From Chitinivibrio alkaliphilus ACht1 (GTDB lineage Bacteria > Fibrobacterota > Chitinivibrionia > Chitinivibrionales > Chitinivibrionaceae), in contig NZ_ASJR01000004.1 of assembly GCF_000474745.1 (NCBI RefSeq), forward strand, positions 55,988 through 119,987: a stretch of DNA of 64,000 bases. The letters run 5' to 3'. Every line of letters starts with the position of its first letter. Position 1 is the first letter of the stretch. Positions 16,532-56,314 of this stretch are shown here, one piece after another. The translations under genes were made by a program, and so were the position numbers. The notes under the pieces were generated by a model. The model did no database searches. It was not told the DNA's origin and saw only the letters and a list, made by a program, of their open reading frames with translations.

Positions 16532-16901
16532 GCACATAAATGCATGTGGAGAGCGTTTGTGTACGGTTTTTTCAGAACAGGTTTCCTGTTATGAAGCACT
16601 CTTACATATCACGAAAAAACTATCCGGCTCCATTGCTGTATCCAAGGGAGATCTTACTTCTCTTATGTCTGTCATGGAGGAAAAGCAGCAGCTCATGCAG
16701 CATCTTGATACGTTAACGTCTGAGAATCAGACTGAAATGACCCTGTGGCAGGCAGAGCGGGAACATGCTTCTGAATCTGTGAGAGAGCAGGTGAATTCCT
16801 CCTTGGATAGAGTAACCCAGGCCATAGAACGATTTCTTCAAGCGGAGAAGCAATTACAAAAACAACTGGAGTTTTATGGAACAGCCGGAAAAACAGAATA
16901 A
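16521..16901 (+). CDS. FlgN-like coiled-coil protein. The assignment is tentative.
   Basis: ATG overlaps the TPR gene stop; 126 aa, helical and Q/E-rich ('MEEKQQLMQHLDTLTSENQ'). Confidence 0.35.
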   Translation: MGDKHINACGERLCTVFSEQVSCYEALLHITKKLSGSIAVSKGDLTSLMSVMEEKQQLMQHLDTLTSENQTEMTLWQAEREHASESVREQVNSSLDRVTQAIERFLQAEKQLQKQLEFYGTAGKTE

Positions 16902-18141: not shown

Positions 18142-18143
18142 GT

Positions 18144-20318: not shown

Positions 20319-20325
20319 TTCTACT

Positions 20326-21294: not shown

Positions 21295-21321
21295 GGACGC
21301 CGTTTCAGAAATGAGGTTATT

Positions 21322-23307
21322 ATGGAAGATGCTTTTACCAGCAGTGGCGTGGCATTTGCCTTTGGTGTTATCACGGGAGGGTTTATTGCGGTACTCCTCT
21401 CCATACTCTTTTTTATTATAGAAAACAGAGTACGATATGGACGGGAGAAGGAAAAGGAGCTTGTTGCTAAGACCGTGTCCGGACTCATGCGTCGTGTAAA
21501 TCATATTTTTATCAGCTATCGCTTGGGGGATATATCTTTCCGGCAGATGGAGGCAGAAAGCCGTGAGGTGATCTCTCAAATAGACGAGGAAGTTTCGGAA
21601 AATTCAGTCTTTTTGAACAATTCCTATGTTTCTATTATTCAACAGTATATCGATGAAAAAAATGAGAGCCTTGTAACAATTAAGGAGAGTTTGTCCGCTT
21701 CGTCAACCCAGGCAGCGGCCACAGATTACATACCCGATGGGGCTTCTTTCCAGAATGAATATGCACCTCGCATATCTTCAGCCACAGAGAATACAACTAC
21801 CCAAGAAGAAGAGGGGAGAGTTTCTTCTACAGATACTCAGGAAAAAGAAGCCCCCTTGGTATCACGCGAGTCTGAGACGATGGAAGCTCCCTCCACGGAG
21901 GACAACGCCTTCACAGATCTTACAGAATATATTGCCGGAGATGCTACGGATGAACCTCAGGATACAGAACCGGCTGTTTTTGAAAAAGATGATCGCCGAG
22001 ATACTGGATTAGAAGAACGGACGGTTACGGAGCAAACATCCGATGCGGCGTCTGGCGATATAGAACCTACTTATGCGGCGTCTGAAGATTTGAATGTCAG
22101 TGGTACAGAAGTGCTTAAGGACGATGCACTGTTACATGAACAAGATACTTCTGGTGTACATGGTTCTCATGATGAGGATGAGTCTTTCTCTCTTGGTGAT
22201 TTTATGGAAGAGAAATCTATGAAGGAGACAGTGGATACTTCTGCCGTAGATGAGATGGACGAGTCTGAATCTGGGGATGGTTCGAAGGAGCTTTCCCTCG
22301 ATGAAGCTGAATCTACGCCCCGTGATGCTACTGAGGATGCCTCCTTCTCCTTTGCGGGAAAACAAGATTTTACCGTCGAGGAAGAAGACGACTCTCATCC
22401 TGAGACTGAAGACGGTGCTTCATTAGGCCAAGAGCAGGAAACACCACACCACGAAAATAACGAGGAAGAGTTTGTTGATCTCCATTCTTCCGATCTTGCA
22501 ACTTCTGCTGCATCGAAGGAAAATTCCTCTTCGATGGAAGAACAAAATCAGGAGTCAGATGTCTCCTTGGCGATTGACGAAGATGATTTTAGTTTTGCTA
22601 TTGATAAGGCGTTTAATCTCACCTCGGAGGATGAGGAAGATGCGGTGGAGCAAGAGAACACATCCTTAGATGCAACCATTGAGCTTTCATCGGATACTCT
22701 CATGAGCGATGATACCTTGGCAGAGGAATCCCCCTTTGACTTCTCCTTTCATAGTGGGGGTGAAACCGAACAGAGGCAGACCGGAGATGAGGCTCCTACT
22801 GATCTTTCTGATCGTTCCCTGGATAGTATTGGCTTGGACGTATCTGAAGATACGGATGAAGCGTTTCCTTCTTTTCAGCATACTGATGAAGGCACATCCT
22901 TAGATACAACCATTGAGCTTTCGTCGGATACTCTCATGAACGATGATACCTTGGCTGAGGAGTCACCCTTTGACTTTTCCTTTCGCAGTGGAAGTGAACC
23001 TGAAAAGACTCAAGCTGATGATGAGTCTTCTCCTATTCCCGCGGAAAGTCCCCTTAATAGCATGGGTTTTGATTTTTCTGAAGATACAGAGGATGATTTC
23101 TCTTCCTTAGAAAGTCCCTTGGAGCGTACGCAGGAATTTAATCTTAATGACACAAGTGTACCCCTAGATCAGATAGATGTGGAAGCAACGCAGGAGTTTA
23201 ACCTCAACGACCTCATGTCTCAAGCAGAAGAGAGTAATGACTTGGATGATCAAGATATGGTGAGTGGGGACGATGTGGCGAATAAACTGGATGATCTATT
23301 TAAATAA
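21322..23307 (+). CDS. Membrane-anchored, highly acidic low-complexity protein with two tandem ~79-aa repeats
   Basis: N-terminal TM 'VAFAFGVITGGFIAVLLSILFFII', then a D/E/S/T-rich ~580 aa region. Repeats 'TIELSSDTLM[SN]DDTLAEESPFDFSF' appear twice, and 'TQEFNLND' appears twice. Confidence 0.55.
   Translation: MEDAFTSSGVAFAFGVITGGFIAVLLSILFFIIENRVRYGREKEKELVAKTVSGLMRRVNHIFISYRLGDISFRQMEAESREVISQIDEEVSENSVFLNNSYVSIIQQYIDEKNESLVTIKESLSASSTQAAATDYIPDGASFQNEYAPRISSATENTTTQEEEGRVSSTDTQEKEAPLVSRESETMEAPSTEDNAFTDLTEYIAGDATDEPQDTEPAVFEKDDRRDTGLEERTVTEQTSDAASGDIEPTYAASEDLNVSGTEVLKDDALLHEQDTSGVHGSHDEDESFSLGDFMEEKSMKETVDTSAVDEMDESESGDGSKELSLDEAESTPRDATEDASFSFAGKQDFTVEEEDDSHPETEDGASLGQEQETPHHENNEEEFVDLHSSDLATSAASKENSSSMEEQNQESDVSLAIDEDDFSFAIDKAFNLTSEDEEDAVEQENTSLDATIELSSDTLMSDDTLAEESPFDFSFHSGGETEQRQTGDEAPTDLSDRSLDSIGLDVSEDTDEAFPSFQHTDEGTSLDTTIELSSDTLMNDDTLAEESPFDFSFRSGSEPEKTQADDESSPIPAESPLNSMGFDFSEDTEDDFSSLESPLERTQEFNLNDTSVPLDQIDVEATQEFNLNDLMSQAEESNDLDDQDMVSGDDVANKLDDLFK
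22661..23130 (+). repeat. Two tandem ~235-bp coding repeats (about 90% nt identity across the first ~85 bp) inside the acidic protein gene
   Basis: Unit starts at ~22661 and ~22895 ('catccttagat[gc/ac]aaccattgagcttt...'). Confidence 0.7.
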
Positions 23308-38829: not shown

Positions 38830-39057
38830 ATAATTCTCCTGTTTTAGTAGTAGTAAAACTTAGTATACCTCGACCCTTAAGATATATTTTTATTTATATC
38901 TTTTGATAAAAAAGAGTGAAAGTTTTGTCTTCTGTAGCAGTGCCTAACAATGTTTGTTCTTGTTTTTTGCGAGAGTTCTGTAACTCTACACAGGAGATAT
39001 ACTATTTTTGTGAAAATCGATTTTTCCCATATGGTACTGTCACAAAAAGGGGGACGA

Positions 39058-40071
39058 ATGAATAAAATAGGTGTAACCATACTGTTGGGGCTACTCAGCT
39101 TTGCAGTTTTTTCAAAGGAGTCGAGTGTGAACGAAGGTGTATTTGCGCAAATGAAGACATCGAAAGGGAGTATCACAATACAGTTGTATTATGATAAAAC
39201 TCCCCTAACTGTTGCCAATTTTGTTGGGTTGGCAGAAGGGAACATATCTAATACTGCCCAAGATGAGGGGGATCCTTTTTATGATAGAGTAGTGTTTCAT
39301 CGTGTTGTTGATGGCTTTGTTGTTCAGGGCGGAGATCCAACTGGTACAGGACGCGGTGGTCCGGGGTACCAATTTCCTGATGAAATTGTACCTGGTTTAA
39401 CCCATTCAAAGGCGGGTATATTATCTATGGCGAACGCTGGTCCTGGCACCAATGGAAGTCAATTTTTTATTACCCTCGATGCACAGCCACATCTTGATGG
39501 AAAGCATACCGTGTTTGGCGAAGTAGTGTCCGGTATGGATGTGGTGAACTCCTTACGGCAAGGTGATACGATTCGTTATGTCGATATAGAGCGTGTTGGC
39601 AGTACGGCGCAGGAGTTCTCTGCAGATCAAGACCATTTTGATCAACTTCTTGCAGATGTGAAAGAGGAGGAGACGCGTCGGCAGGAAAAAGAGCGGGATG
39701 CTCAGGCAGCTTCCATTGCAGAAAAATATCCCGATGCACAAAAATCAGAGGCGGGCTTTTTCTATATTCGTGAGGCGGAAGGAACGGGAGATACTCCCCA
39801 AAAAGGAGCAACTGTATCGGTCCATTATACGGGAAGTTTTCTTGATGGACAGGTTTTTGATAGTTCAAGACGACGTGGTACTCCCCTCGAATTTAGCCTT
39901 GGCATGGGAGAGGTGATTTCAGGGTGGGATGCTGCTCTGTTAGAAATGAAACAGGGTGAAAAACGAACAATCATACTTCCTCCGGAGCTTGCCTACGGTG
40001 AGCAGGGTGCAGGAGGCGTTATTCCTCCCAATGCATGGTTAGTATTTGAGGTTGAACTTATCGATTTTTAA
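39058..40071 (+). CDS. Secreted bifunctional peptidyl-prolyl cis-trans isomerase (cyclophilin domain plus FKBP domain)
   Basis: Signal 'MNKIGVTILLGLLSFAVFS'; cyclophilin 'FHRVVDGFVVQGGDPTGTGRGG...LSMANAGPGTNGSQFFIT'; FKBP 'YTGSFLDGQVFDSS...PLEFSLGMGEVISGWD'. Confidence 0.75.
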   Translation: MNKIGVTILLGLLSFAVFSKESSVNEGVFAQMKTSKGSITIQLYYDKTPLTVANFVGLAEGNISNTAQDEGDPFYDRVVFHRVVDGFVVQGGDPTGTGRGGPGYQFPDEIVPGLTHSKAGILSMANAGPGTNGSQFFITLDAQPHLDGKHTVFGEVVSGMDVVNSLRQGDTIRYVDIERVGSTAQEFSADQDHFDQLLADVKEEETRRQEKERDAQAASIAEKYPDAQKSEAGFFYIREAEGTGDTPQKGATVSVHYTGSFLDGQVFDSSRRRGTPLEFSLGMGEVISGWDAALLEMKQGEKRTIILPPELAYGEQGAGGVIPPNAWLVFEVELIDF

Positions 40072-40277: not shown

Positions 40278-41639
40278 GTGTCTGTGAGAGAAAAAGGTTT
40301 TTTTCAGCGGATTTACGGATATGTACGGAGTGTGCATCCTGAAACGCATATATACCTCTATATAGCCCTAGTCATTCTTGGTATTATTTGGTATGCCCTT
40401 TATACTTCCTACATGCTTGAGCGACTCACAACCTACTCAAAAGCTTCCACCCAAGCTCACGCTGAAATGGTGAGTGATGTTCTTTTTAGTGACTTAAGTC
40501 AATACCGAAAACATAGTATTATTCAAGGTATTGTGGAAGATTTTGATATGCCCATTATTTTTACCGATGAATATGGTGAGCCCCATATTTGGTGGAATAT
40601 CTACCGACGAAAAGGGTTGTTCCAACGCGAGAAGATAGCCTATGACGACGATTCTTACGAGACTATCCAGTATCTACGTCAGAAGGTTCGTGAGTTTGAA
40701 AATACCTATGCGCCTAAGTTGGTGTATGCAGGCAACTCAGCCACACGCATGGGGTGGCTCTACTTTAGTGATAGTACCTTTCTTTCTGGGGTTCGTCTGC
40801 TTCCCTTCTTTGAGGTTTTCTTTGTCTTAATAATTATTCTTGCTATTTATATTGTATTGAAATCCATACTTTTTTCGGAACGACGAAGCTTATGGATTGG
40901 TCTTGCCAAGGAGACGGCACATCAAATGGGAACTCCCATTACATCTCTTTTAGGGTGGATTGAGTACTTAAAGCTAGAAAGCACGAGTTATGAATCAGAT
41001 TTTACCCTTGATTACGATACCATGGAAGAAGACAGCTTTCCCAATAAAGTCAATGATATCGCCAGTGATATGGAACGGGATATTGCTCGCTTGAGAAAAG
41101 TGGCAAATCGCTTTGAGCTCATTGGTTCAAAGCCTTCCTTGCGTCCTAGCTGTTTACGAAAGCTTCTTGAAGATCACGGTGCATATTTTTCGCGGCGTGT
41201 TCCTGTCTTTGGACGAAAGGTGAACGTCGCTGTTGATATTAAAAATGATCTTCCCCCGGTACTTTTAAATAGCGATCTTCTGAGCTGGGTTTTTGAAAAT
41301 TTGTTTAAAAACTCCCTCGATGCCATGGATAAAGCAGAGGGTGAGATATATATTAGCGCTGAACATGTAAAGGTTGATAGGGTTGTTATTGTACGACATC
41401 GTGATAATGGCTGTGGTGTTGGCAAGGACAAGCGTAACACGGTTTTTTCTCCGGGCTATACCACTAAGAGAAGAGGGTGGGGCCTTGGTCTGGCCTTGGC
41501 ACGAAGAATTATCCAAACCTATCACAAGGGTAAAATCTATATTTCCTGGACAAAAAAGGGGGAGGGCACTGAAATTGTGATTGAATTGCCCGTAGCACCC
41601 CAGGCAAAAAAAGGAGCAGTCCATGCCGATGAAGCGTAA
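40278..41639 (+). CDS. Two-TM sensor histidine kinase (PorY-like architecture)
   Basis: TM1 'IYLYIALVILGIIWYALY'; TM2 'FFVLIIILAIYIVLKSILF'; H-box 'ETAHQMGTPITSLLGWIEYL'; HATPase 'NSLDAM', 'DNGCGV', 'GWGLGLALARR'. Confidence 0.75.
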   Translation: MSVREKGFFQRIYGYVRSVHPETHIYLYIALVILGIIWYALYTSYMLERLTTYSKASTQAHAEMVSDVLFSDLSQYRKHSIIQGIVEDFDMPIIFTDEYGEPHIWWNIYRRKGLFQREKIAYDDDSYETIQYLRQKVREFENTYAPKLVYAGNSATRMGWLYFSDSTFLSGVRLLPFFEVFFVLIIILAIYIVLKSILFSERRSLWIGLAKETAHQMGTPITSLLGWIEYLKLESTSYESDFTLDYDTMEEDSFPNKVNDIASDMERDIARLRKVANRFELIGSKPSLRPSCLRKLLEDHGAYFSRRVPVFGRKVNVAVDIKNDLPPVLLNSDLLSWVFENLFKNSLDAMDKAEGEIYISAEHVKVDRVVIVRHRDNGCGVGKDKRNTVFSPGYTTKRRGWGLGLALARRIIQTYHKGKIYISWTKKGEGTEIVIELPVAPQAKKGAVHADEA

Positions 41640-43194
41640 GCGCGTACTATGGATTGACGACGAGGTCGAATATCTTCGTTCACATATCATGTTTCTTGAA
41701 ACCCGCGGCTATGCCGTAACCCCTGTCTTTAGTGGTGATGATGGGCTGTATCAGTTGCAAAAAGGGGAGGACCGTTATGATATTGTGCTCCTTGATGAGC
41801 AGATGCCCGGTAAGGATGGGTTAACTGTTCTTGTGGAAATAAAAGAGCTCTACCCAGATCTTCCTGTTGTTATGGTGACAAAAAGCGAGGAAGAAGAGCT
41901 CATGGAAAAAGCGATTGGCAGAAATATTGATGGATATCTTACCAAACCGGTGAATCCAAGTCAAGTGTTACTGGTTTGTAAAAATCTGCTTAATTCCGGA
42001 GAATATGTTTCGAAACAGGCCAAAACACTCTTTGTAAAAAGTTATTCTGACATCCAAACATCGCTGAACCGTTCTCTCGGATACAAGGAGTGGGTAAAGC
42101 TGTATCACAGTTTAATAAAACGAGAAATGAGTCTTTCTGATATCGATGATGAGTCCATCCGGCAGGGACATCACGGACAGTTTAACGACGCAAATAAGAA
42201 ATTTGGTGACTGGCTTATTTCAGTATATCCGAAATGGGTTGAGGAATCTGTGGCTCGCCCTACCATGTGTCACGATATCCTTAAAAAATTCATTATACCA
42301 GAAATCTCTTCTGGGCGCCCCATTGCCTTTTTGGTTCTTGATTCTCTTCGTATGGATCAATACATTACCATTCAACGGATTATTAAACGAAATTTTCAAG
42401 TAAACAACTATTTCTACTACTCCCTTATTCCTACGGCGAAGGAAATTGCCCTTTCTTCACTTTTGACAGGTGCACTTCCGCGTGATATCAAAAAAGAGCA
42501 TGAAAGCCTTTGGAGTGTGGTGGAGCAGGGAGGTACTGTGTGGGAAGAGTTGGTAAAAATAGGTCTTGAGCCAAGTGATATTCCTCACGAAAAACGAACC
42601 TTTTACGATTTTTCCGCAGGGGCTATTGATATAGACTCTATTGCTTCCTCCATTGTACGGGATGGCTGTGTTCCCACCATTCATGCTGATTTTCTACAGC
42701 TTTTTGCTGGATTTGACTCTTCTGCAGCGTTGGGTGAAATGGCTGCAAATGGAACAGCCTTTCGTGAGATGCTTGAGTCATGGTTTCGTGGTTCTCGTTT
42801 GTATGAGTTACTACGGAGACTGAGCAGTGAAGAAGTTACGGTAATTCTCACATGCAGCTCTGGGAATATCCTCAGCACGCGTGGTACGGAGTACTATGGG
42901 CAAGATCAAAAAATATATTCGGGGCGTTTTCGTTATGGAGAATCTGTTTCGTGTGATGAGCGTTTTGGCTATCATCTCACAGAGCCTGAACGATTCGGCC
43001 TTCCCGTACGAAGTGATTCCACCCTGTATATTTCATTGAAAGAAAACTATTATTTCACTGAACATGCGTCCTATCAAGAGTATAATCGGCATTATAAGAA
43101 TAGCTTTGAGCGTGGGGGAGTCAGTATGGATGAGGTAATTCTGCCACTTTCTGTACTAAAGCCAAAGGTTCTTGATTTAGACTTGGACTTTTAG
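41623..43194 (+). CDS. Response regulator with an N-terminal receiver and a C-terminal PglZ/alkaline-phosphatase-like domain (PorX-like)
   Basis: REC 'VLWIDDEVEYL...DIVLLDEQMPGKDGL...TKP'. A ~390-aa C-terminal domain includes 'AFLVLDSLRMDQ'. Total length 523 aa, similar to PorX-type regulators. Confidence 0.55.
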   Translation: MPMKRKRVLWIDDEVEYLRSHIMFLETRGYAVTPVFSGDDGLYQLQKGEDRYDIVLLDEQMPGKDGLTVLVEIKELYPDLPVVMVTKSEEEELMEKAIGRNIDGYLTKPVNPSQVLLVCKNLLNSGEYVSKQAKTLFVKSYSDIQTSLNRSLGYKEWVKLYHSLIKREMSLSDIDDESIRQGHHGQFNDANKKFGDWLISVYPKWVEESVARPTMCHDILKKFIIPEISSGRPIAFLVLDSLRMDQYITIQRIIKRNFQVNNYFYYSLIPTAKEIALSSLLTGALPRDIKKEHESLWSVVEQGGTVWEELVKIGLEPSDIPHEKRTFYDFSAGAIDIDSIASSIVRDGCVPTIHADFLQLFAGFDSSAALGEMAANGTAFREMLESWFRGSRLYELLRRLSSEEVTVILTCSSGNILSTRGTEYYGQDQKIYSGRFRYGESVSCDERFGYHLTEPERFGLPVRSDSTLYISLKENYYFTEHASYQEYNRHYKNSFERGGVSMDEVILPLSVLKPKVLDLDLDF

Positions 43195-43195
43195 T

Positions 43196-43630
43196 ATGCA
43201 ATTTACGACACATTCTGCGCAGGAGACTCGTCTAATTGGAGAACGCTTAGCTTCTTTGCTTTCTCCCGGTGCAGTAGTTGCTCTTGAGGGCGATTTAGGA
43301 AGTGGTAAGACCGAGTTGGTTCGTGGCTATATGAGTCGTGTCTTTCCGGGAGAGATCGTTCATAGCCCAAGCTTTTCTATTGTTAATACCTATGGCTCAG
43401 GGGAACAGTATGTGCATCATTTTGATTTTTATCGGCTTCATTCCCCAGATGAACTATTCGAAATTGGGTTTTCAGAATATCTTGAGAGTACTGCCGTTGT
43501 GTTTATTGAATGGGCCGACATGTTTCCCCACGTTATTCCTCCCCATGCAGAGCATATACATATGCGAACGGCTGGAGAAGAGTCTGGTCGGATTATTGAA
43601 ACAACCCTGTCTCAACTCTGTCCAAAATAG
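43196..43630 (+). CDS. tsaE: tRNA t6A biosynthesis ATPase TsaE
   Basis: P-loop 'GDLGSGKT'; 144 aa; 'HFDFYRL' motif. Confidence 0.8.
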   Translation: MQFTTHSAQETRLIGERLASLLSPGAVVALEGDLGSGKTELVRGYMSRVFPGEIVHSPSFSIVNTYGSGEQYVHHFDFYRLHSPDELFEIGFSEYLESTAVVFIEWADMFPHVIPPHAEHIHMRTAGEESGRIIETTLSQLCPK

Positions 43631-44583
43631 TTGCTGCTGATTGCCTCTTCTATGGCCTTTTTCGCTTCTGCGTACAAACTGTCTATACGTTGTGACTCCG
43701 CTTTGATACGATCGCTGTTATGCTCCTTTGCAGCATCCTCCATGAAGGCACTGCAGAGATTGAGCTTTTCCACTCCGAGGTTTGATGTTGCTCCTTTCAT
43801 TGTGTGGGTGTGATGACGCAGGGCATCCCAATCTTCTGTATTCACAAGGTCGTGGAGTTTTTCTAGATCACGAGGAAAACGTTGGAGAAATGCCGTAAGT
43901 ATTTTAAGAGCAACGTCTTTTTCGTAATACCCGTGTAAAAACGCTTCCTTGTTAAAGATGAGGGTGGTTTCGGGAATTGGAATCTCGCTGCTCGTATGGG
44001 TAAGGATATTCTCAATTTTTTCCTGTAACACATTCATATCTATCGGTTTTGTAATGTAATCATTCATACCAGCTTCTATGGCTTTTTCTTTGATATCTGA
44101 AAGAGCGTGGGCAGACATGGCAATAATGGGCGTCTGTTTATTTTTGTCAACATAGTTTCGAATGTACTTTGTTGTTTCAAAGCCATCCATCTCAGGCATT
44201 TGTATATCCATAAGTATCACATCATATACCGTTTCTTCGGTCAGTTTTATCACCTCTTTCCCATCCTGTGCTAAATCTGTTTTAACTCCCATTTCTCCAA
44301 GTAATGCTAGGCTTACTTCTTGGTTGATCTCATTATCTTCCACAAGAAGAATGGTTGTGTTTTTCAGTGTTGTTTGTGTTTCTTTTTCTGTTGTTTTGGG
44401 CGTTGAGTCTGTAGAAAAAACAGAAAGGAGCTCTTGTCCCATCTCCGTAATAGGAGCGTCTTTGTGGATACTGTGGGTGTATTCTGAGTGCACAGGGGGA
44501 GCCACTTTCTCGGGTAAGGAGAATTCGTTTGCAACACGAAAAGTCATCGATAGTAGATATTGTTTTTGCAAATTGTGCGGCAC
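43612..44583 (-). CDS. Receiver (REC) plus HPt phosphotransfer protein. The N-terminus is uncertain, and it may be the frameshifted C-terminal part of the upstream hybrid kinase.
   Basis: REC 'ILLVEDNEINQ...DVILMDIQMPEMDGF...TKP'; HPt 'RHHTHTMKGATSNLG'. The track ORF starts at a GTG right after a TGA. Confidence 0.65.
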   Translation of the reverse strand: MPHNLQKQYLLSMTFRVANEFSLPEKVAPPVHSEYTHSIHKDAPITEMGQELLSVFSTDSTPKTTEKETQTTLKNTTILLVEDNEINQEVSLALLGEMGVKTDLAQDGKEVIKLTEETVYDVILMDIQMPEMDGFETTKYIRNYVDKNKQTPIIAMSAHALSDIKEKAIEAGMNDYITKPIDMNVLQEKIENILTHTSSEIPIPETTLIFNKEAFLHGYYEKDVALKILTAFLQRFPRDLEKLHDLVNTEDWDALRHHTHTMKGATSNLGVEKLNLCSAFMEDAAKEHNSDRIKAESQRIDSLYAEAKKAIEEAISSNYFGQS

Positions 44584-47473
44584 TCATCCCTTTCAAGTCA
44601 TCAGAGACAACAACTCCTTCGTATGCGATCTCTTTTGTATAGAGATGATTAATTGCTTCTGGGGCACTCTCACATCGATCGGCTGTGAGGCGCATATCCT
44701 TGATTTTGTTCCACACATACTCTTCATGAGTGGGGATAATAAAGAGTAATGTTCGTTCCCGCAGGGGAGAAAGGGTTATGTCTTTTGGTTGCTGAAGAGG
44801 GAGGCGTATCCAAAAAATAGCTCCACGGGGAGAGTTGTCACGAACACCAATTTCTCCTCCCATAAGGGTTGTTAATTCTTTTGAGATTGCTAAACCCAGG
44901 CCTGTTCCACCATATTTTCGGGTTGTCGATGTGTCCGCCTGGGAGAATTTATCAAAGAGTACTTCTTTCTTTTCATCCCGTACTCCAATGCCGGAATCTT
45001 CCACAGCAATATGTAGGGGAGTATCTTTTGCTGTGGTGACCCGAATAAAAACCCCTCCTTGGTGGGTAAATTTTATCGCATTTGATACAAGGTTTGTTAT
45101 CACTTGCCGAAGGCGGATTGGGTCACCACGGAAAAACTCCGGTACATCTGAGGCTATGTCATATTTTAGGGAAAGCCCCTTCTCTTCAGCTTTAAAGGAG
45201 AGACTGAGCATCGTTTCCGAAAGTAGCTTATGAATACTGAAGTCGATTGACTCTAAATCAAGACGTTTTGCTTCTATTTTAGAAATATCAAGAATATCAT
45301 TGACTAAGCTGAGAAGAATTTGGCCACTACTACTAATACTCTCTGCAAATTTTTCTTGTTTGTCATCTAAGTTTGTCGAGAGAAGAAGTTTTATAAGACC
45401 AAGAATACCGTTAAGTGGGGTTCGTATTTCGTGAGACATGTTTGCAATGAAGTCACTTTTCGCTGAATTGGCAAGTTTTGCCTTTTTTGCAAGTCTTTGA
45501 GCAATATCTTTTTGTTTGGTAAGGGCAAGGGTATACTCCTCGGCCTTCTTTCTCATACGCTCTTCATCTTCGGCAATACTTAAGGCATTTCGACTTGTTT
45601 CGTCAATGGATTCGACAAGAGTATAGATAGCATGCTCAAGGGTGGTACTTTCTTGCGCAAGACTTTCTTTGAGAGAAAGTAGTTGTGAGAAGAGAGAGGA
45701 ACATTCAGAAGAGGCGTCTCGTGGATAATTTTCCTCTAAATGTGCGACCAGTTCGAAAAGAGTATCCTTTGCTTCATGGAATTGTCGTATCTGGTTTGAA
45801 ATATCAATACGAGAGGTTTTCTCGGCAACTTTATTTTGCGTTTCCTGTATATCGATATCAGTGAAAAAGCCCTTTTCCGGATTATATTTTTGTTTTTTAT
45901 TAAGACGGCGAAGCAGGGTGTTTACCTCTTCCTTAAGTTCACGGATTCGGGTTTCACGACCGTTCATAAGGTGATTCATAATTTCCAGTTCGCGGTACTG
46001 TCTTTGCAGTTTCTTTTCTGCCAGCACTTTCTCGGTAATGTTTTCTTTAATAGCAATGTAGTTTGTAATTGCGCCTTGAGAATTTTTTATAGGAGAAATA
46101 GTTGCAACTTCATAGTAAATATCGCCGGATTTGTTTTTATTTTCGAATTCACCATGCCAGGTTCTACCGGATGAAATTGTTTTCCATAGTTCTTCATAGT
46201 AGCTTTCATCCATATGTCCTGATTTTAATATGCGCGGATTTTCCCCAATAGCTTCTTCGGCTGTATAGCCCGTAGAAAGGGTAAAGGCTGGGTTTACATA
46301 CTCAATGATTCCTTCAAGGTCTGTAATAACAACGGTCGATTTTGTTTGTTCTATGGCAATGTTAATTCGTCGATTTTGTTCTTCTGTTTTCTTCTGCTTG
46401 GTTACCTCTATATGGGTACCAAACATGGTTACGGGGGCGCCTGTTTCATCCCACTCCAAAATCTTTCCCTTCCCATGAATCCACACCCAATGTCCTTTTT
46501 TATGATGCATACGAAATTCAATGTCGAGTTCTTCTGATTCTTTTTTAAGGCATTGATTCACGGCGTGCAGTGTTTCGGAAACGTCATCGGGATGGAGGAG
46601 GTTTTTCCATGTATCAAAGCCGGTTTCTCCCAATTCTTCCGAGGTATAGCCGATAATATTGACCCATCCCGTATCGAAATACGTTTCGTTGGTTTTTATA
46701 TTCCATTTCCATGTACCGATGTTGAGAGATTCCGTGATGCGGAAAAAATATTCTCGCTGTGCGTCTGCATAGGCAGATCGATGAATTTGATCTGTAATAT
46801 CTATTATATATGACACGCAGTCTGAAAGAGCTCCCTCTTCATAGGTGAAGAGGGTGTAGTGATCAACCCAGATGTATTCTCCCACATGAGTTTCAAGGCG
46901 GTAGGGGGTATGGTGCAGGGTTTCTGCTTTATGTGATATGGCTTGAGTAATTTCTTTTGTATAGGTGTCTCGATCCTGTGAAGAGATGAGAGATGTATAC
47001 AAAATTCTATTCTGAAGAAAATCTTTGGGGAAATAGCCGAGAATGGATTGGGTATTCTCAGAAACAAAAGACAGGCTATGAGTATCGATGTCCTTCCAAT
47101 GAAACAACATGACAGGACCATTCATAAAGAGGACTCGTTCATACTCAAGTTCTTGTCTCTTTTTGTGTGTGTCAGTTATATCAAGGGCAGAACAGAGAAC
47201 TTGTGAGGCCCCCGCTGATGGTGGGAGATTGGGAATTAAATGCACACAAAAAAAACGCGATTCTCCCTGAGAGTTTTCCATGGATGTCCACGTACACAGG
47301 GCCTCTCCAGAGGAGAGAACCTGTTCAATTTCTTCGTATAAGGGGCTTTCTTCGGTGAACATATTCTCCTGCTCTTCTGCAAGATGGAAAAACTCTTGTG
47401 TTGCCCTGTTTGCATATTGATACGTGCGCTGTATATCGATTGCCCAAAGTAGAACTGTTTTTCCCATACACAC
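44333..47473 (-). CDS. Multi-PAS hybrid sensor histidine kinase (PAS x3-4, HisKA, HATPase_c, degenerate receiver)
   Basis: H-box 'MSHEIRTPLNGILG'; 'LVSNAIKFT', 'DSGIGV', 'GTGLGLAISK'. The C-terminal 'TLLFIIPTHEE...VVVSDDLKGMS' is receiver-like but lacks the acidic pocket. Confidence 0.8.
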   Translation of the reverse strand: MCMGKTVLLWAIDIQRTYQYANRATQEFFHLAEEQENMFTEESPLYEEIEQVLSSGEALCTWTSMENSQGESRFFCVHLIPNLPPSAGASQVLCSALDITDTHKKRQELEYERVLFMNGPVMLFHWKDIDTHSLSFVSENTQSILGYFPKDFLQNRILYTSLISSQDRDTYTKEITQAISHKAETLHHTPYRLETHVGEYIWVDHYTLFTYEEGALSDCVSYIIDITDQIHRSAYADAQREYFFRITESLNIGTWKWNIKTNETYFDTGWVNIIGYTSEELGETGFDTWKNLLHPDDVSETLHAVNQCLKKESEELDIEFRMHHKKGHWVWIHGKGKILEWDETGAPVTMFGTHIEVTKQKKTEEQNRRINIAIEQTKSTVVITDLEGIIEYVNPAFTLSTGYTAEEAIGENPRILKSGHMDESYYEELWKTISSGRTWHGEFENKNKSGDIYYEVATISPIKNSQGAITNYIAIKENITEKVLAEKKLQRQYRELEIMNHLMNGRETRIRELKEEVNTLLRRLNKKQKYNPEKGFFTDIDIQETQNKVAEKTSRIDISNQIRQFHEAKDTLFELVAHLEENYPRDASSECSSLFSQLLSLKESLAQESTTLEHAIYTLVESIDETSRNALSIAEDEERMRKKAEEYTLALTKQKDIAQRLAKKAKLANSAKSDFIANMSHEIRTPLNGILGLIKLLLSTNLDDKQEKFAESISSSGQILLSLVNDILDISKIEAKRLDLESIDFSIHKLLSETMLSLSFKAEEKGLSLKYDIASDVPEFFRGDPIRLRQVITNLVSNAIKFTHQGGVFIRVTTAKDTPLHIAVEDSGIGVRDEKKEVLFDKFSQADTSTTRKYGGTGLGLAISKELTTLMGGEIGVRDNSPRGAIFWIRLPLQQPKDITLSPLRERTLLFIIPTHEEYVWNKIKDMRLTADRCESAPEAINHLYTKEIAYEGVVVSDDLKGMSAAQFAKTISTIDDFSCCKRILLTRESGSPCALRIHPQYPQRRSYYGDGTRAPFCFFYRLNAQNNRKRNTNNTEKHNHSSCGR

Positions 47474-50271: not shown

Positions 50272-50440
50272 GTGGCAAAAGGAGTGGTAAAACTTCGCTT
50301 TTTTTTAAAATTGGAATCTCCTGTCCATGGGGTATTAAATGAGCAAAAATGTCAAAAGATAAATATGAAATATGAACAGTTTTGTATATACTATACAGTA
50401 AGCAGTAATAGGATATACCACCGTGACAAGTGAGTTGTGT

Positions 50441-51655
50441 ATGGGCCACGTCGTTTTCTTCCTTCTATGGATTCTTTGTGCAGGTTGTATTGGTGCTGAT
50501 ACTGTGCCTCACCGCCCTTTTCCACAGGAGGAACGGTGGGGGCATGCGATTCGTCCCAGCCAGTACTCTCAAGAAGAGTTGAATAACCACGTGGTTGATC
50601 TGTATGAGTACTACCGTGATACGTATTTGCGCCCGTCTCAAAGAACTGAAGGAGGGTATTATATCCACTCAGGTGGAACAAATGTTAATTTTTCTACCAC
50701 GGCAACCGTTTCGGAAGCTCATGGATATGGTATGATACTTTTTGCTCTTATGGCTGGGCATGATGTGGAGGCAAAAGAGTATTTTGATGGTATGGTTGCT
50801 TTCTTTCTGGATCATCCCAGTGGTGCCAATCCTTATAATATGTCATGGGAAATTGAGGGGCAAGAACGTCGACGCCCCAGAAATTCTGCTACCGATGGAG
50901 ATTTAGATATTGCCTATGCCCTTATTTTGGCGCACAATCAATGGGGTTCCACGGGGCGGTATGACTATCGTCAAAAGGCATACGACATGATTATTCATGG
51001 GATTTTGGTGGATAATATGTCTCAGCGTACAAAACGAACCCTTCTGGGTGACTGGGATAGGGATCACTATACCTCTCGTACATCCGACTGGATGCCTGCT
51101 CATTTTCGCGCATTTGCAGATGTTACGGGGGATGACTTTTTTCTTGAGGCTATTGATACTGTGTACGCCTTGATAGAAAGTGTACAGAGTGAATTCTCTC
51201 CTCACACCGGCCTTCTTCCCGACTTTATTACGGGGCGGTTCCCCGAACCGGATCCCCGTGGTGGTGGAACCTATGAGAATAATTCTGAGAAGTATGATTG
51301 GAATGCGTGTCGAGTTCCATGGCGGATTGCCACGGAGTATCTACACCATGAATCTCCTGCGGCGCGAGAGTTTTGTAGTACCGTTATAGAGTGGCTTATT
51401 GCCCACACTGAGGGGGATCCCCGTCGTATTACGGCAGGCTATACCCTTTCGGGTGAAGAGTTAGTAGATTACTCTTCTGTAGCATTTCAGGCGCCTTTTG
51501 CCCTTGCGGCAACGGTTGATGAGCGATTCCAAGACTATCTTGATGCATCGTGGGATATCCTGCGTAAAGATCGTGGTAATGGTGTGTATGTAACAGCGAT
51601 TAATTTATTTTCCATGCTTTTAATTTCGGGTAATTGGTGGGCCCCTCAAGGATAG
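50441..51655 (+). CDS. Secreted glycoside hydrolase family 8, catalytic domain only. The start is either ATG 50441 or GTG 50423.
   Basis: Signal 'MGHVVFFLLWILCAGCIG'; GH8 signature 'ATDGDLDIAYALILAHNQW'. Confidence 0.8.
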   Translation: MGHVVFFLLWILCAGCIGADTVPHRPFPQEERWGHAIRPSQYSQEELNNHVVDLYEYYRDTYLRPSQRTEGGYYIHSGGTNVNFSTTATVSEAHGYGMILFALMAGHDVEAKEYFDGMVAFFLDHPSGANPYNMSWEIEGQERRRPRNSATDGDLDIAYALILAHNQWGSTGRYDYRQKAYDMIIHGILVDNMSQRTKRTLLGDWDRDHYTSRTSDWMPAHFRAFADVTGDDFFLEAIDTVYALIESVQSEFSPHTGLLPDFITGRFPEPDPRGGGTYENNSEKYDWNACRVPWRIATEYLHHESPAAREFCSTVIEWLIAHTEGDPRRITAGYTLSGEELVDYSSVAFQAPFALAATVDERFQDYLDASWDILRKDRGNGVYVTAINLFSMLLISGNWWAPQG

Positions 51656-51683
51656 TTAGGTACTGTAACCAGATGGAGTTGAT

Positions 51684-53887
51684 ATGCCGTGTATAAAACT
51701 GTTATTCTGTCTTTTTGTTCTCAGTGTTCAGCTGTGGGCAGGGCCACAAAGACCGTTTCCGCAAGAGGTTTCCCCTGAGCATGCAATTCAGCCTGATAGA
51801 TATACCCAGGAAGAGATGAACGAAGATGTTATTGCTGTCTATGAGCATTACAAAACCTTTTTGCGTGAGTCTTTGCGTACCCCCGGGGGATATTACATGC
51901 TTGCTGGCGGAACAAACATTGGCTTTGATACCACGGCAACAGTTTCCGAGGCTCACGGGTACGGTATGATTGTTTTTGCTCTTATGGCAGGATATGACGA
52001 GGGAGCTAAGGAATATTTTGATGGAATGTATCAATTTTATCGAGACAATCCAAGCTATGTTAATTCCTATAATATGGCATGGGAAATTGAGGGGTTGGAG
52101 CGTGAACGTGGTGAGCGTTCCTCAGCCACCGATGGGGATATGGACATTGCCTATGCTCTTCTTCTTGCGCATCGTCAGTGGGGTTCAGATGGGGAAATAG
52201 ACTATTTGCAGGCGGCACAAAATCTTATTACCCGGGGGTTAAAAGAAGACTGCATGTCTCCTTATACGGCTCGTATTATGCTGGGAGATTGGGATCAATG
52301 GAGTGATAATTATCACTATACCACACGGAGTTCAGACTGGATGACTGCTCATCTTCGGACCTATTACTGGGCAACGGAAGATGCGTTTTGGCTTGAAGCG
52401 GTAGACACCGTGTACAGTATTATGGATGCCATCACCCAAAACTATTCTCCCCAGACGGGGTTGATGCCTGATTTTGTTGCCGGCAGAGATCCCTATCCCG
52501 ACCCTGATGGAGGAGGTACTGGTGAACCAAACTCACATAAATATGACTGGAATGCATGCCGTGTTCCTTGGCGTATCGGTATGGATTATGTTCATTTTGA
52601 AAGCCCGGAGGCACGAGAAGCAGCAAAAAATATGATGACATGGGTCATGGAAAAGACCGGAGGAGATCCTGCTGAGATAGTGGGAGGCTATCATCTTGAT
52701 GGTACGCCAATTGAGGGGCGGGCACCAACGATTGCCTTTCAAGCACCCTTTGCAGTAACAGCCATGATTGATGAAGAATATCAGGACTTTTTAAACAAAA
52801 GCTGGGCCCTAATGCGAGAAGGGAAAGAGACAAGCGTATATCGAACAGCACTCAACCTTCTATCTATGCTTGTGGTATCGGGTAACTGGTGGAACCCTGT
52901 GGAGGAAAGACCGGGGCAGAGGGAGTTTCGACTAAATGTGCATAATGGCACCGGTGGTGGTGTCTACGAAGTGGGGGATACGGTGACTATCCATGCGGAC
53001 GATCCTCCTGCCGGTACGGAGTTTTTAAGTGGGGTGGGGATGTTTCTTTTCTTCCAACGTCAACAGAAAAGACAATCGTCTTTACTATGCCACGTCAAGA
53101 TCTTTTCTTTACTGCATTTTATAGAGATCCCTCTGCAGAAAAAGATACGACGGGACTTTCCCCGTGTCTTATAGAACATATTTCCTGGGAGGTCGATGCC
53201 GATCTTCTTGGTTCGGAGGTTCGTTATACTACGAATGATGAGTTCCTTGAAATTTCACTTTCTCTTCTTGAGGATGGCTATAGTAGTTACTCATGGATAA
53301 AAGCGGTAGGCCGTGCAGAGGGGGCATATGATGCGGTTGATTATATTGCTGTTTCCTACTCTGCAGACAGAGATTTCAATCTTGTCCTTGACCAAAGACA
53401 ATTAACTGATAGAGGAGCCTCTCATTTTTACCAGCTTCCTGCAACGGACACCGTAACAACCCTCTTTATTCCTGTTGGAGATTTTGTCCAGCCAGACTGG
53501 ACACCTTCGTATTTACAACGAGATACCCCCCGTATGGAAGATGTCTATGCCCTTTCATTTCAAGGAAGAGAGAAAGGGAGTACCACGGATATCTCCTTGT
53601 ATAGCCTCCGACTAAATTATTTTGCTCCCTATACAACAGAGACGATTTCTTCGTCTGTAGAGTCATCTTCTTACGGTATACGACATGCTCCGGGGCGAAT
53701 ACTCTTTCCACGGGAAATTTCCCATGGATTGTTTACTCTGTATACAACACAGGGGCGTCGGGTTCATGAAGAGCAACTATTTCAAGGAAATACGGAGCTG
53801 CGGATTGATTTTCTACGCAGAGGTACGTACATCGGTGTTCTGGAGACATCTGATGGAAGAATTGTACATACTTTCAGCGTAAAATAG
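51684..53887 (+). CDS. GH8 paralog with Listeria-Bacteroides-type B-repeat, CBM-like module and C-terminal sorting-type beta domain. It carries an apparent 1-nt frameshift in the T5 run at 53022-53026; as-sequenced ORFs are 51684-53174 and 53087-53887.
   Basis: GH8 signature 'ATDGDMDIAYALLLAHRQW'. Read across the frameshift: 'GGGVYEVGDTVTIHADDPPAGTEF|KWGGDVSFLPTSTEKTIVFTMPRQDLFFTAFY'. Tail 'GLFTLYTTQGRRVHEE...GTYIGVLETSDGRIVHTFSVK'. Confidence 0.65.
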
Positions 53888-54001
53888 TGGCAATTATGTC
53901 AGAAATGTATTAAATTACTACGGAGATGAAACAGAACAGGAACTACTCCTGGGTTGGTTTTCATAGAGGATATTACGGTGTTTTACAAAAAGAGGTTGTG
54001 T

Positions 54002-56314
54002 ATGAAGGTTACAAAACGTACTATGGTATCTGCTCTTATGTGTATCACCCTTGCGGTGATGACATTTGGACACGATTATCAAAAAGCTTTAAATATGTCT
54101 GTCCGTTTTTTTGGTGCCCAGCGATGCGGTAGTGACGTACATTCATGGATTGGACATGAGTCATGTCACTGGCACGATTATAGCATTGATGGGGTTGATT
54201 TGGGTGGTGGCTGGCATGATTGCGGAGACCATATTAAATTTGGTCTTACCGGTGGCTATTCAGCAGCATTGCTTCTGCACGCCTATTTAAATTTTCCAGA
54301 TGCCTTTGAAGATAATTACTCCTACGAAAATTCAGCCGGTAGTCCCAATGGTATCCCCGATGTGTTAGTTGAGGTTAAACATTACACGGACTACGCGTTA
54401 AAGATGCTTCAAGGCGACACTTTTTACTACCAGGTGGGAGATATGCAGAGCGATCACCACCAGTCCTGTTCTCGCCCCGATTATCAAACAAACAATGAGA
54501 CCGGAGGCTCCCGTCGGTATTATTCTGTAGATGGAGGGGGGGCTTCCAACGTTGCGGGTACCCATGCTGCTGTGCTTGCCATGATGTCACGGGCATATCG
54601 TGAATTTGACGAAGAGTATGCGGACTTATGCCTGGAAACGGCCAAAAAGATGTTTGCCTTTGGTGATGCAAAACATGAAGCCTTAGGTACAATGGATGGT
54701 CAAGAAGAAAACAGTCCCTATGAAGATGATACCTTTGCTGACGACATGGCCTTCGGTGCTATTGAGCTGTATAATGCAACGGAAGAGCAAGACTACTTAC
54801 TGGCAACTCGTTCCTTTGTAGAAAATGGTGGAGGTCTTCCCACGTACTATGTTTTAAATTATAACCGTGTAAATCCTCTTGCTGTGTATAGTTTTGCGCA
54901 AGTCCTTTCGTCTCAAGGAACTGGTCTGAGACGTGAAGTAGATAATTATCTTGATAAAATGACAGATCTTGGTTTTGCTTTCTGGAATGGATGGGGTAGT
55001 TTAAAGTATACTGCGGCCGGCTCGTATGTTGCCTTATTAGCCTATGATCTTTTTCCTGATAGCACGCATTACCGTGATTTTGCAGAGGCAAACATCGACT
55101 TTATTCTTGGAGATCATGGCGGTTCTGCTGGTAATTTCAGTGCGGGATATAGTTTCCTTTCTGGATATGGGGATGATTACCCCATGGATTTAATCCACCA
55201 CAAGGCTGCTTTTGGTGGGGCACCATGTGCCTTTGGTTCCGGATGGGGCCAGTTTGGCAGTGATGCTGCAAATGAGTATCGTCTTGAGGGAGCTCTTGTT
55301 GGTGGTCCCACCGATGAAGGAGGGACGTATTGGGAACAACGTGGCGGAGATGGCGGGTATTACACAAGTGAAGTGTGTATTTACTATAATGCTCCCTTTG
55401 TAGCTGCTTTGGCGGCATTCCTGCATGAAGGTGATGATGACGGTGATGACGGCGATGATGACGGCGATGATGATGGCGATGATGATGGCGATGATGATGG
55501 CGATGATGATGGCGATGATGATGGCGATGATGATGGCGATGATGTAAATCTTTCAGGGTATCTTGGATGGTATGTATATCACGATGATTTTGGATCATCC
55601 ATAGATACATCAGGTGGTCTCCTCCAAGATGATAGCTTGGTAGAGATAACGTTTGATATGGTTGAAGAAAATGCAGATGATGAAATTTGGCCGTATGGTG
55701 GGTTAGCTACAGCTCTTTCTACTTCCTTAGCAATGCCAGAGTATATCACTTTTAGCTATTCTGCAACCAACGATTTCAACGTTGTCCTCCCCATGGATGC
55801 GGTATCACAAGCTGGAGGTGATTATCGAGCATCTCTTCCTGCTACAGGTGGATCATGGGAGACTGTTACCTTGTCCTTAAATGCGAACACCTTTTCTCAG
55901 CCGGGGTGGGCAGATAACGTAGACTTTGATAAGTCTACGGTTGAGTCCTTTGAAATTACTCCCGATTTTGATGGAGCCACCGGAGAAATTGCAATTCGTG
56001 GAGTCTATATTGACGGTTTCTCTCCTGACCAGGTGCCCCTTATTGGTAGTGGCCGTTCTGTCTCTTCAGGCACGGGAATATCCTTACTATCTGTAACAGA
56101 ACAGTCTTTGGGGATTTCTGTGCCTGATGCTGGCATGTATACAATTAGAGCATTTACTCCTGATGGTCGTAAGGTTGGACAAATCGTAAATCGTATGGAA
56201 GCGGGTGAAAACCGTGTCGGTTGGTTCGGTCAGAATACCTTTGCCAGCAATGTAATATTGTTGCAGGTACAAGGTCAGGGGTATTCTCAAGTGTTGCGAG
56301 TTAATATGCGTTAA
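54002..56314 (+). CDS. Secreted GH9 endoglucanase with poly(DDDG) linker, CBM-like module and C-terminal sorting-type beta domain
   Basis: SD 'AAGAGG'; signal 'MKVTKRTMVSALMCITLAVMTF'; GH9 motif 'DLGGGWHDCGDHIKFG'; tail 'GMYTIRAFTPDGRKVGQIV...VILLQVQGQGYSQVLRVN'. Confidence 0.8.
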   Translation: MKVTKRTMVSALMCITLAVMTFGHDYQKALNMSVRFFGAQRCGSDVHSWIGHESCHWHDYSIDGVDLGGGWHDCGDHIKFGLTGGYSAALLLHAYLNFPDAFEDNYSYENSAGSPNGIPDVLVEVKHYTDYALKMLQGDTFYYQVGDMQSDHHQSCSRPDYQTNNETGGSRRYYSVDGGGASNVAGTHAAVLAMMSRAYREFDEEYADLCLETAKKMFAFGDAKHEALGTMDGQEENSPYEDDTFADDMAFGAIELYNATEEQDYLLATRSFVENGGGLPTYYVLNYNRVNPLAVYSFAQVLSSQGTGLRREVDNYLDKMTDLGFAFWNGWGSLKYTAAGSYVALLAYDLFPDSTHYRDFAEANIDFILGDHGGSAGNFSAGYSFLSGYGDDYPMDLIHHKAAFGGAPCAFGSGWGQFGSDAANEYRLEGALVGGPTDEGGTYWEQRGGDGGYYTSEVCIYYNAPFVAALAAFLHEGDDDGDDGDDDGDDDGDDDGDDDGDDDGDDDGDDDGDDVNLSGYLGWYVYHDDFGSSIDTSGGLLQDDSLVEITFDMVEENADDEIWPYGGLATALSTSLAMPEYITFSYSATNDFNVVLPMDAVSQAGGDYRASLPATGGSWETVTLSLNANTFSQPGWADNVDFDKSTVESFEITPDFDGATGEIAIRGVYIDGFSPDQVPLIGSGRSVSSGTGISLLSVTEQSLGISVPDAGMYTIRAFTPDGRKVGQIVNRMEAGENRVGWFGQNTFASNVILLQVQGQGYSQVLRVNMR
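55430..55544 (+). repeat. Near-perfect 12-bp tandem repeat (GATGATGGCGAT)n, about 9.5 units, encoding (DDDG)n
   Basis: Direct reading of 'gatgatggcgat' iterated; the opposite strand gives an artefactual His/Arg-rich ORF. Confidence 0.9.

Follow-up and report, generated by a model that had tools for sequence, protein, structure and literature searches.

A sensor kinase-PorX-TsaE operon in Chitinivibrio alkaliphilus ACht1 with a PorX ortholog predicted to lack catalytic activity

In a stretch of 64,000 nucleotides (nt) from the genome of Chitinivibrio alkaliphilus ACht1 (contig NZ_ASJR01000004.1, positions 55,988 to 119,987; hereafter the window), we identified a predicted operon of three genes, which encode a sensor histidine kinase, an ortholog of PorX, the regulator associated with T9SS, the secretion system of type IX, and a protein of the TsaE/UbK family. 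The PorX ortholog retains the receiver domain and the overall fold of PorX, but its C-terminal enzymatic domain is predicted to be unable to carry out the chemistry described for PorX. It is probable that the operon encodes a kinase-driven PorX signalling module whose C-terminal domain would act as a non-catalytic scaffold. The module is assigned to the PorX family by descent and fails one defining feature of characterized PorX, the catalytic heptad.

Organization of the operon

The kinase gene (40278–41639, + strand, 453 aa) and the regulator gene (41623–43194, + strand, 523 aa) overlap by 17 nt (41623–41639), and the tsaE/ubK-family gene (43196–43630, + strand, 144 aa) starts 1 nt past the porX stop codon. 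The ATG of the regulator gene is preceded by AAGGAG, 7 nt before the start and within the end of the kinase gene. At the kinase gene, GAGGAG, which resembles a ribosome-binding site, fits the GTG at 40284 better than the GTG at 40278, two codons away, and the true start may be the former. Scans for promoter-like and terminator-like patterns gave counts not above those of shuffled sequence and none at the gene junctions, and no convincing internal terminator was found within hk-porX-tsaE (hk denoting the kinase gene). The three genes are therefore assigned to one operon of a cellulose-degrading Fibrobacterota bacterium resembling members of Chitinivibrionia/Chitinispirillia. A preliminary description of this DNA had given the coordinates of the first two open reading frames (ORFs) and the 17-nt overlap, both of which proved exact, and had called them a true operon pair. 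The pairing is supported by the overlap and by its conservation across phyla (see below), but the operon holds a third gene, tsaE, which had not been mentioned.

The regulator as an ortholog of PorX

The regulator consists of a CheY-like receiver (REC) domain (41623–41997, +; residues 1–125), a linker domain forming a three-helix bundle (41998–42267, +; residues 126–215), with long predicted helices at residues 125–149, 154–173 and 177–206, and an alkaline phosphatase (AP)-superfamily domain of the PglZ type (42268–43194, +; residues 216–523). The same three domains and the same length are found in PorX of Porphyromonas gingivalis (PGN_1019/PG0928) and Flavobacterium johnsoniae (Fjoh_2906), structures of which are available (PDB 7PV7/7PVK, 8P6F and 8TED).

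Pfam Response_reg scored 74.5 bits on the regulator, and Pfam PglZ (PF08665) scored 19.2 bits, under the gathering score of 25, and covered residues 234–299 only (66 residues); a precomputed PF08665 match is present in most of its homologs. Homology was settled not by this partial match but by the full-length PorX model and the fold. The NCBIfam equivalog T9SS_RR_PorX (NF052313) scored 427.7 bits (cut-off 300), with residues 7–515 aligned to positions 2–513 of the 513-position profile. A phmmer search of PDB matched residues 3–515 to crystal structures of PorX from F. johnsoniae and P. gingivalis (8ted/7pvk; E 3e-86) and gave no full-length match other than PorX. An AlphaFold (AF2) model based on 120 homologs had a mean pLDDT (predicted local distance difference test) of 89, and its 17 best PDB matches were all PorX chains (7pvk_A, E 1e-50; TM-score up to 0.77; 30% identity); the next match was PglZ of the bacteriophage exclusion (BREX) system, with a TM-score of 0.44. 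We therefore assign the regulator as a full-length PorX ortholog, in agreement with the preliminary description, which had recognized a CheY-like receiver joined to a PglZ/AP-type C-terminal domain in a protein of the size of PorX. Of the two comparisons proposed there, the one with PF08665 gave a partial match under threshold, whereas the one with the PorX structures was clear.

The switch residues of the receiver are all present: D12, D13, the phospho-acceptor D58 (codon 41794–41796), T86, Y105 and K108. D58, T86, Y105 and K108 are invariant in the 120 homologs, and the full set including D12 and D13 is invariant or nearly so. The receiver is 72–86% identical across the Fibrobacterota homologs. 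The nearest database relatives of the whole protein are 41–68% identical and, where named, come from Fibrobacterota metagenome-assembled genomes (Chitinivibrionales, Chitinispirillales and Fibrobacter). The window regulator thus resembles PorX in its identity of about 30% from end to end, its predicted fold, its REC switch residues, the tsaE/ubK gene downstream, and its occurrence in a lineage of the Fibrobacteres-Chlorobi-Bacteroidetes (FCB) group having T9SS genes; it differs from P. gingivalis PorX in being encoded in a kinase-linked operon rather than by an orphan gene.

Loss of the catalytic site

The metal-binding and nucleophile residues of P. gingivalis PorX are D239, T272, D361, H365, D415, H416 and H500 (PMC9757075), equivalent to D237, T271, D360, H364, D414, H415 and H499 of F. 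johnsoniae PorX (bioRxiv 2024.05.15.594396). With the P. gingivalis numbering fixed from the T272A chain 7pvk, D239 corresponds to D240 of the window protein and is the only one of the seven to be kept. The nucleophile T272 is replaced by K273 (codon 42439–42441), D361 by Q359, H365 by G363, D415 and H416 by S412 and S413 (codons 42856–42861), and H500 by R497 (43111–43113), so that six of the seven residues are lost; no His is available as a counterpart of H365 in any alignment register. The nucleotide-contacting Arg276 is also replaced, by L277. On the other hand, residues of the fold core of P. gingivalis PorX (P269, G417, R438, G501, G502, E507 and P511; PMC9757075) are retained as P270, G414, R435, G498, G499, E504 and P508 and do not vary among the 120 Fibrobacterota homologs.

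The T272A and D361A/H365A mutations abolish the activity of PorX (PMC9757075). By the alignment and the model, the AP-fold domain of the window protein keeps its fold but is predicted to be unable to perform di-zinc, Thr-phosphate chemistry. Since six of the seven metal/nucleophile residues and Arg276 are lost, a phosphodiesterase assay is predicted to be negative, and neither phosphodiesterase activity nor the Zn-induced dimerization of PorX would be expected. At the AP-domain dimer interface, the position of P. gingivalis S385 is naturally a Glu in the window protein (E382; 42766–42768), which hints that the Zn-dependent contact between AP domains may not be conserved. An S385E/S389E mutant abolishes dimerization in P. 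gingivalis. Pseudoenzyme output domains are familiar in response regulators from degenerate GGDEF/EAL receivers. Like the window regulator, these retain an enzymatic fold after loss of the catalytic residues and have an intact receiver, although their fold and chemistry are different.

Decay of the site within Fibrobacterota

A scan of species-representative genomes recovered at least 80 PorX loci, a sample rather than a census, which by record title came from Bacteroidota, Rhodothermales, Balneolaceae, Ignavibacteria, Calditrichia, Cloacimonadota, Zixibacteria, Latescibacterota, Eisenbacteria, Gemmatimonadetes, KSB1, Poribacteria and Fibrobacterota. Among the loci listed, none of the 78 non-Fibrobacterota proteins departed from the seven residues, and deviating sites were found only in the window and the two loci from Fibrobacterota. 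The 120 homologs nearest to the window protein in the database are all Fibrobacterota-like; the complete set of seven is present in 18 of them, and at most two of the residues are left in 52.

A rough neighbour-joining tree groups the Fibrobacterota sequences in a single clade, with a basal grade that has an intact site. The losses are nested, with the Zn1 histidines (H365 and H500) lost first, then D239, and then the D415/H416 pair together with the nucleophile; the ten-member clade of the window protein is the most degenerate. Intact, partly degenerate and fully degenerate members occur in the same serS-hk-porX-tsaE neighbourhood, indicating that they are orthologs at one locus and not paralogs. 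This pattern indicates a stepwise decay of the predicted catalytic site inside Fibrobacterota. The name 'bifunctional response regulator/alkaline phosphatase family protein', which NCBI gives to some relatives, is probably wrong for most Fibrobacterota members.

The sensor kinase and its pairing with PorX

The kinase has two hydrophobic, putatively transmembrane segments (about residues 24–46 and 172–198) separated by a periplasmic loop (some 125 aa), an H-box (AKETAHQMGTP) with His215 (codon 40920–40922) directly after the second segment and no HAMP domain, and a HATPase_c domain (63 bits), as expected of the classical kinase with two membrane spans that the preliminary description had recognized. 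Searching PDB with the kinase gave generic kinase domains only, and no PorY model was among its NCBIfam matches. It resembles PorY of P. gingivalis (PGN_2001), which is likewise a membrane histidine kinase with N-terminal transmembrane segments, a phospho-acceptor domain and an ATPase domain (PMC4800418), and, like PorY, is the presumed partner of a PorX-type regulator. The P. gingivalis kinase is described as an orphan (PMC4800418), whereas the window kinase is encoded immediately upstream of its own regulator gene and overlaps it.

The linkage was surveyed by tblastn with the window kinase together with recovery of the ORFs upstream of porX, giving 73 loci with readable upstream sequence. 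Full-length homologs of the kinase (30–49% identity) lie directly upstream of porX in 19 of the 73 loci, in at least seven phyla, and either overlap porX or stop a few tens of bases or less from its start. They were present in Fibrobacterota (2/2), Zixibacteria (3/3), Latescibacterota (3/3), Eisenbacteria (3/5, plus one at 1.8 kb), Gemmatimonadetes (Gemmatimonadota; 1/1), Poribacteria (1/1), Ignavibacteria-labelled loci (3/12) and unlabelled loci (3/7). The family was found upstream of porX at none of the 24 Bacteroidota loci, nor in the sampled Balneolales, Rhodothermales, Cloacimonadota and Calditrichia. At loci lacking the adjacency, no family member was found elsewhere within 10 kb on either side of porX, except at L027 and L040 (1–2 kb away); none of the 24 Bacteroidota loci had one within this distance.

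The family shares the signatures W.G[ML]AKETAHQLGTP..SL.GW, RF..IGS.P.L, NL.KN..DA and F.PG[FY][ST]TK.RGWGLGL as well as part of the periplasmic loop. A profile built from the PorX-linked kinases gave as its top 120 matches only close relatives of the Zixibacteria type. The kinase is also directly upstream of porX in the relatives L081, L084, L086, L087 and L088. At L085 (10001–11990), the sub-lineage of P0013 (49% identity, degenerate site) has no upstream kinase and keeps porX-tsaE, showing that the linkage can be lost within Fibrobacterota too.

Because the two genes overlap and their pairing is conserved across phyla, the window kinase is very probably the cognate partner of the PorX ortholog. 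Linkage of the kinase to PorX is the usual arrangement in at least seven non-Bacteroidota FCB phyla and thus ordinary for this organism, and the unlinked ('orphan') state of Bacteroidota looks derived.

The downstream tsaE/ubK gene

The third gene of the operon encodes a TsaE-family protein (TIGR00150, 96 bits, cut-off 60.1; PF02367, 118.5 bits) with Walker A (GDLGSGKT32), HFDFYR75, SPS57 and EW105 motifs. It thus has all four motifs of the UbK1/TsaE/YjeE/YdiB family (Walker A as well as HxDxYR, SPT/S and EW) and shares with UbK1 the position directly downstream of porX. In P. gingivalis, ubK1 (TsaE/YjeE family) lies downstream of porX in 81 strains, and UbK1 phosphorylates PorX on Tyr79 according to a 2026 study (PMC13241743). 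Whereas that report covers P. gingivalis strains only, in 64 of the 75 loci sampled, from more than 12 FCB phyla, we found a TsaE homolog on the porX strand and at most 300 nt downstream of porX. Neither the window protein nor its relatives conserve Tyr79, which aligns with D79 of the window protein; the nearby Y77 is unique to the latter. The UbK1 phosphosite therefore cannot explain the ancient adjacency of porX and tsaE.

Possible links to the T9SS, flagella and cellulases

A relative with a 59% identical ortholog (P0002) and the same degenerate site provides a genomic link to the T9SS. Its 207-kb contig L081 carries, in order, fliS, hk, porX, tsaE and ftsH, and then, 5 kb downstream of the operon, the T9SS translocon gene sprA (TIGR04189, 434 bits, cut-off 200). 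Directly upstream of this sprA (16536–21569) is a gene for an FGE-sulfatase-domain protein (15326–16525). GldK/PorK belong to the FGE-sulfatase fold family, but this protein had no NCBIfam match as GldK/PorK, and we make no claim for it.

T9SS has been reported for Fibrobacterota and several other FCB phyla (PMC11285876), and PorX homologs in all T9SS-encoding species (PMC10951265); on T9SS in Chitinivibrio and on PorX outside Bacteroidota, the literature that we found offers general statements only. In F. johnsoniae, the phosphorylated or phosphomimetic REC domain of PorX, and not its PglZ domain, binds the motor protein GldL (PMC10951265), and in P. gingivalis the catalytic mutant PorX T272V keeps about 50% of gingipain secretion (bioRxiv 2024.05.15.594396).

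The window organism falls within a flagellated FCB lineage, namely Fibrobacterota of the Chitinivibrionia/Chitinispirillia type. Fibrobacteres had flagella ancestrally, and Fibrobacteraceae alone lost them (PMC4704652). Because of this ancestry and because T9SS has been reported in several FCB phyla (PMC11285876), the coexistence of flagella and T9SS is expected in Fibrobacterota and is not anomalous. Two flagellar genes had been noted in the window. The fliN gene holds, with a stand-alone FliN-type (SpoA) flagellar switch protein of 87 aa (13369–13632, − strand; PF01052, 70.8 bits) that supports a flagellated lineage, whereas the flgN-like ORF (16449–16901, + strand) is borderline (30.4 bits; cut-off 30.5). 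Neither is part of a flagellar gene cluster, and the latter overlaps genes for a TPR protein and a PAS kinase.

Downstream of the operon are genes for two glycoside hydrolases of family 8 (GH8) and one of family 9 (GH9), all cellulase genes (50423–56314, + strand). The second GH8 gene is apparently split by a frameshift into 51684–53174 and 53087–53887 (+), which reflects either a sequencing error or a pseudogene. ORF 53087–53887 has no family of its own but has a module of about 170 aa in common with the C-terminal part of GH9 (26% identity, E 2e-9), and GH9 and the split GH8 each end in a basic tail of about 80 aa (pI 9.5–9.7). In Fibrobacter succinogenes, a basic C-terminal domain of the cellulases has been read as a divergent T9SS signal (PMC6851124). 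The GH9 tail matched no model of a T9SS C-terminal domain, and BLASTP gave no significant similarity to a weak Por_Secre_tail protein that occupies the syntenic position in L085. Within GH9, between the catalytic domain and the C-terminal module, is a long acidic low-complexity linker of (D/G) repeats (55430–55545, +; e.g. DDDGDDGDDDGDDDG).

Proposed mechanism and alternatives

We propose that the kinase, with its two transmembrane segments, would sense a periplasmic or envelope cue and autophosphorylate on His215, and that the phosphate would pass to Asp58 of the PorX ortholog. The strongly conserved receiver would be the output, acting through phosphorylation-dependent dimerization and partner binding. 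By analogy with PorX, candidate partners are the PorL/GldL motor of the T9SS, through its cytoplasmic part, and/or an extracytoplasmic function (ECF) sigma factor. The C-terminal AP-fold domain, still folded and presumably under selection, would bind no pair of zinc ions and form no Thr-phosphate intermediate, and would instead serve as a structural or dimerization scaffold. A receiver acting as the output mirrors the binding of the F. johnsoniae REC domain to GldL and fits the residual gingipain secretion of the T272V mutant. We regard this model, in which the control of T9SS, the phosphotransfer and the scaffold role are each presumed, as the probable one. It also develops the earlier suggestion of a T9SS-regulatory module in a motile FCB lineage, for which the PorX ortholog, the flagellated FCB lineage and the sprA of the relative speak.

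Several observations weigh against this model. The 64-kb window contains no T9SS core gene, and the co-occurrence of PorX with a T9SS gene was seen in L081 only. The control of T9SS by PorX is itself debated, and roles beyond T9SS have been reported (PMC9757075, PMC13241743). The T9SS-type C-terminal domains that had been attributed to glycoside hydrolases some 8 kb downstream reach no threshold, although the GH8, GH8 and GH9 genes are there: ORF 53087–53887 scored 17.9 bits with TIGR04183 (cut-off 23) and 13.1 bits with PF18962 (cut-off 27), and a database homology search with it found nothing. As for the C-terminal domain of the regulator, the alignment near residues 359/363 is ambiguous and the nearby Asp356 could match D361; its faster evolution in the degenerate members can also be read as drift towards loss; and the conserved Lys/Arg at 273 and Arg at 497 in the clade would also be compatible with a newly acquired role in ligand binding in place of a pure scaffold.

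The chief competing reading is that the module is unrelated to T9SS, the kinase and the REC-pseudoenzyme, always co-encoded with tsaE, controlling some other conserved process such as envelope- or translation-linked physiology, or providing a CheY-like input to the flagellar motor. We consider this unlikely, but by a degree that demands attention, as the adjacency of porX and tsaE is far more conserved than that of porX and any T9SS gene, the serS-hk-porX-tsaE synteny lies amid housekeeping genes, and the window has fliN and the flgN-like ORF and lacks T9SS core genes. In addition, the 2026 study, in the Journal of Biological Chemistry, reports PorX roles separable from T9SS output (PMC13241743), and the authors of a 2022 paper in Nucleic Acids Research doubt that PorY/PorX regulate secretion (PMC9757075). 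However, PorX homologs are reported in every species that encodes a T9SS (PMC10951265), each phylum recovered here is an FCB-type lineage for which T9SS has been reported (PMC11285876), a close relative has sprA at a distance of 5 kb from the operon, and the Tyr79 target of UbK1 is not conserved. A more doubtful variant keeps T9SS control but assumes that the di-zinc pocket was rebuilt, with Lys/Arg for the nucleophile and Arg for the Zn1 histidine, into a metal-free phosphate or nucleotide sensor; this would join a small-molecule signal to the kinase input and govern the export of cellulases by the T9SS in a flagellated bacterium. With Arg276 lost, retained nucleotide binding in such a pocket is less likely.

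The remaining readings are far less probable. An active PorX-type phosphodiesterase, coupling oligonucleotide hydrolysis to T9SS control as in P. gingivalis, was implied by the preliminary description and would fit the full-length PorX architecture and fold as well as the 'bifunctional' database names. It is very improbable given the six replaced residues, including T272 to Lys and D415/H416 to Ser-Ser, the change of Arg276 to Leu, and the inactivity of the T272A and D361A/H365A mutants. Slightly less likely still is the idea of a decaying gene, in which the C-terminal domain is being lost and the regulator is non-functional or a stand-alone receiver. The AP-superfamily domain does diverge faster in degenerate members, with a pairwise identity of 39% against 71% in intact-site members, compared with 76% against 84% for the receiver; but more than 100 diverged Fibrobacterota homologs have an uninterrupted protein of 515–540 aa, the fold-core residues are invariant, the model is confident over the C-terminal domain, the operon synteny is preserved, and no truncated REC-only versions were among the matches, one partial record aside. 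That the regulator is a phage-defence component of the BREX/Pgl kind, a PglZ-type domain fused to a receiver, can practically be dismissed. A distant PglZ fold of the AP superfamily is shared, as seen in a weak match to NCBIfam BREX_PglZ_3 (65.8 bits) and a Foldseek match to BREX PglZ (9zn5_B, E 7e-11), but the former is far under its cut-off of 250 and the TM-score of the latter is low, as given above. BREX PglZ, moreover, has no receiver domain and keeps its metal ligands, no brxA/B/C, pglX or brxL was found among the annotated ORFs across the window, and the regulator gene is syntenic with housekeeping genes across phyla.

Other features of the window

Directly upstream of the kinase gene, ORF 38950–40071 (+) encodes an exported-looking protein in which cyclophilin-type and FKBP-type peptidyl-prolyl isomerases are fused; in relatives, this position is occupied by serS. 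Convergent with tsaE are a REC-Hpt ORF (43612–44583, −) and a gene for a multi-PAS hybrid histidine kinase of 1046 aa (44333–47473, −), which overlap by about 250 nt in different frames and may represent one phosphorelay gene broken by a frameshift or a REC-Hpt ORF with a mis-set start.

Further away, ORF 2620–4005 (+) encodes a diadenylate cyclase (DAC) fused to a phosphotransferase system (PTS) EIIA-2 domain and a DacZ_P sensor domain, and ORF 8895–11051 (+) an Na+/H+ exchanger with a C-terminal EIIA-2 domain, so that, in the space of 8 kb, two EIIA(Ntr)-type modules are attached to outputs that are unrelated. Of 32 bins of 2 kb, 30 have a positive GC skew, and the + strand carries most of the long ORFs; the window seems to be leading-strand sequence from a single replichore.

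Implications for the PorX family

As the kinase-PorX linkage is common outside Bacteroidota, what is new here is a naturally inactivated PorX enzyme domain, as predicted from its residues. The purpose of the PorX phosphodiesterase activity and the identity of the kinase that really feeds PorX, a central T9SS regulator, are basic questions in the literature, and the findings bear on both. In Fibrobacterota, the catalytic site has been dismantled progressively while the fold, receiver and operon were kept, a natural experiment suggesting that the core function of PorX needs no catalysis. The kinase family upstream of porX in at least seven FCB phyla offers a concrete candidate for the ancestral cognate kinase of PorX. 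The linkage of porX to tsaE/ubK, through which a PorX kinase of P. gingivalis was recently found, is ancient and spans phyla. Three points deserve the attention of specialists in this family: the decay of the PorX active site throughout a phylum, the conservation of a cognate-kinase family, and the pairing of porX with tsaE across phyla.

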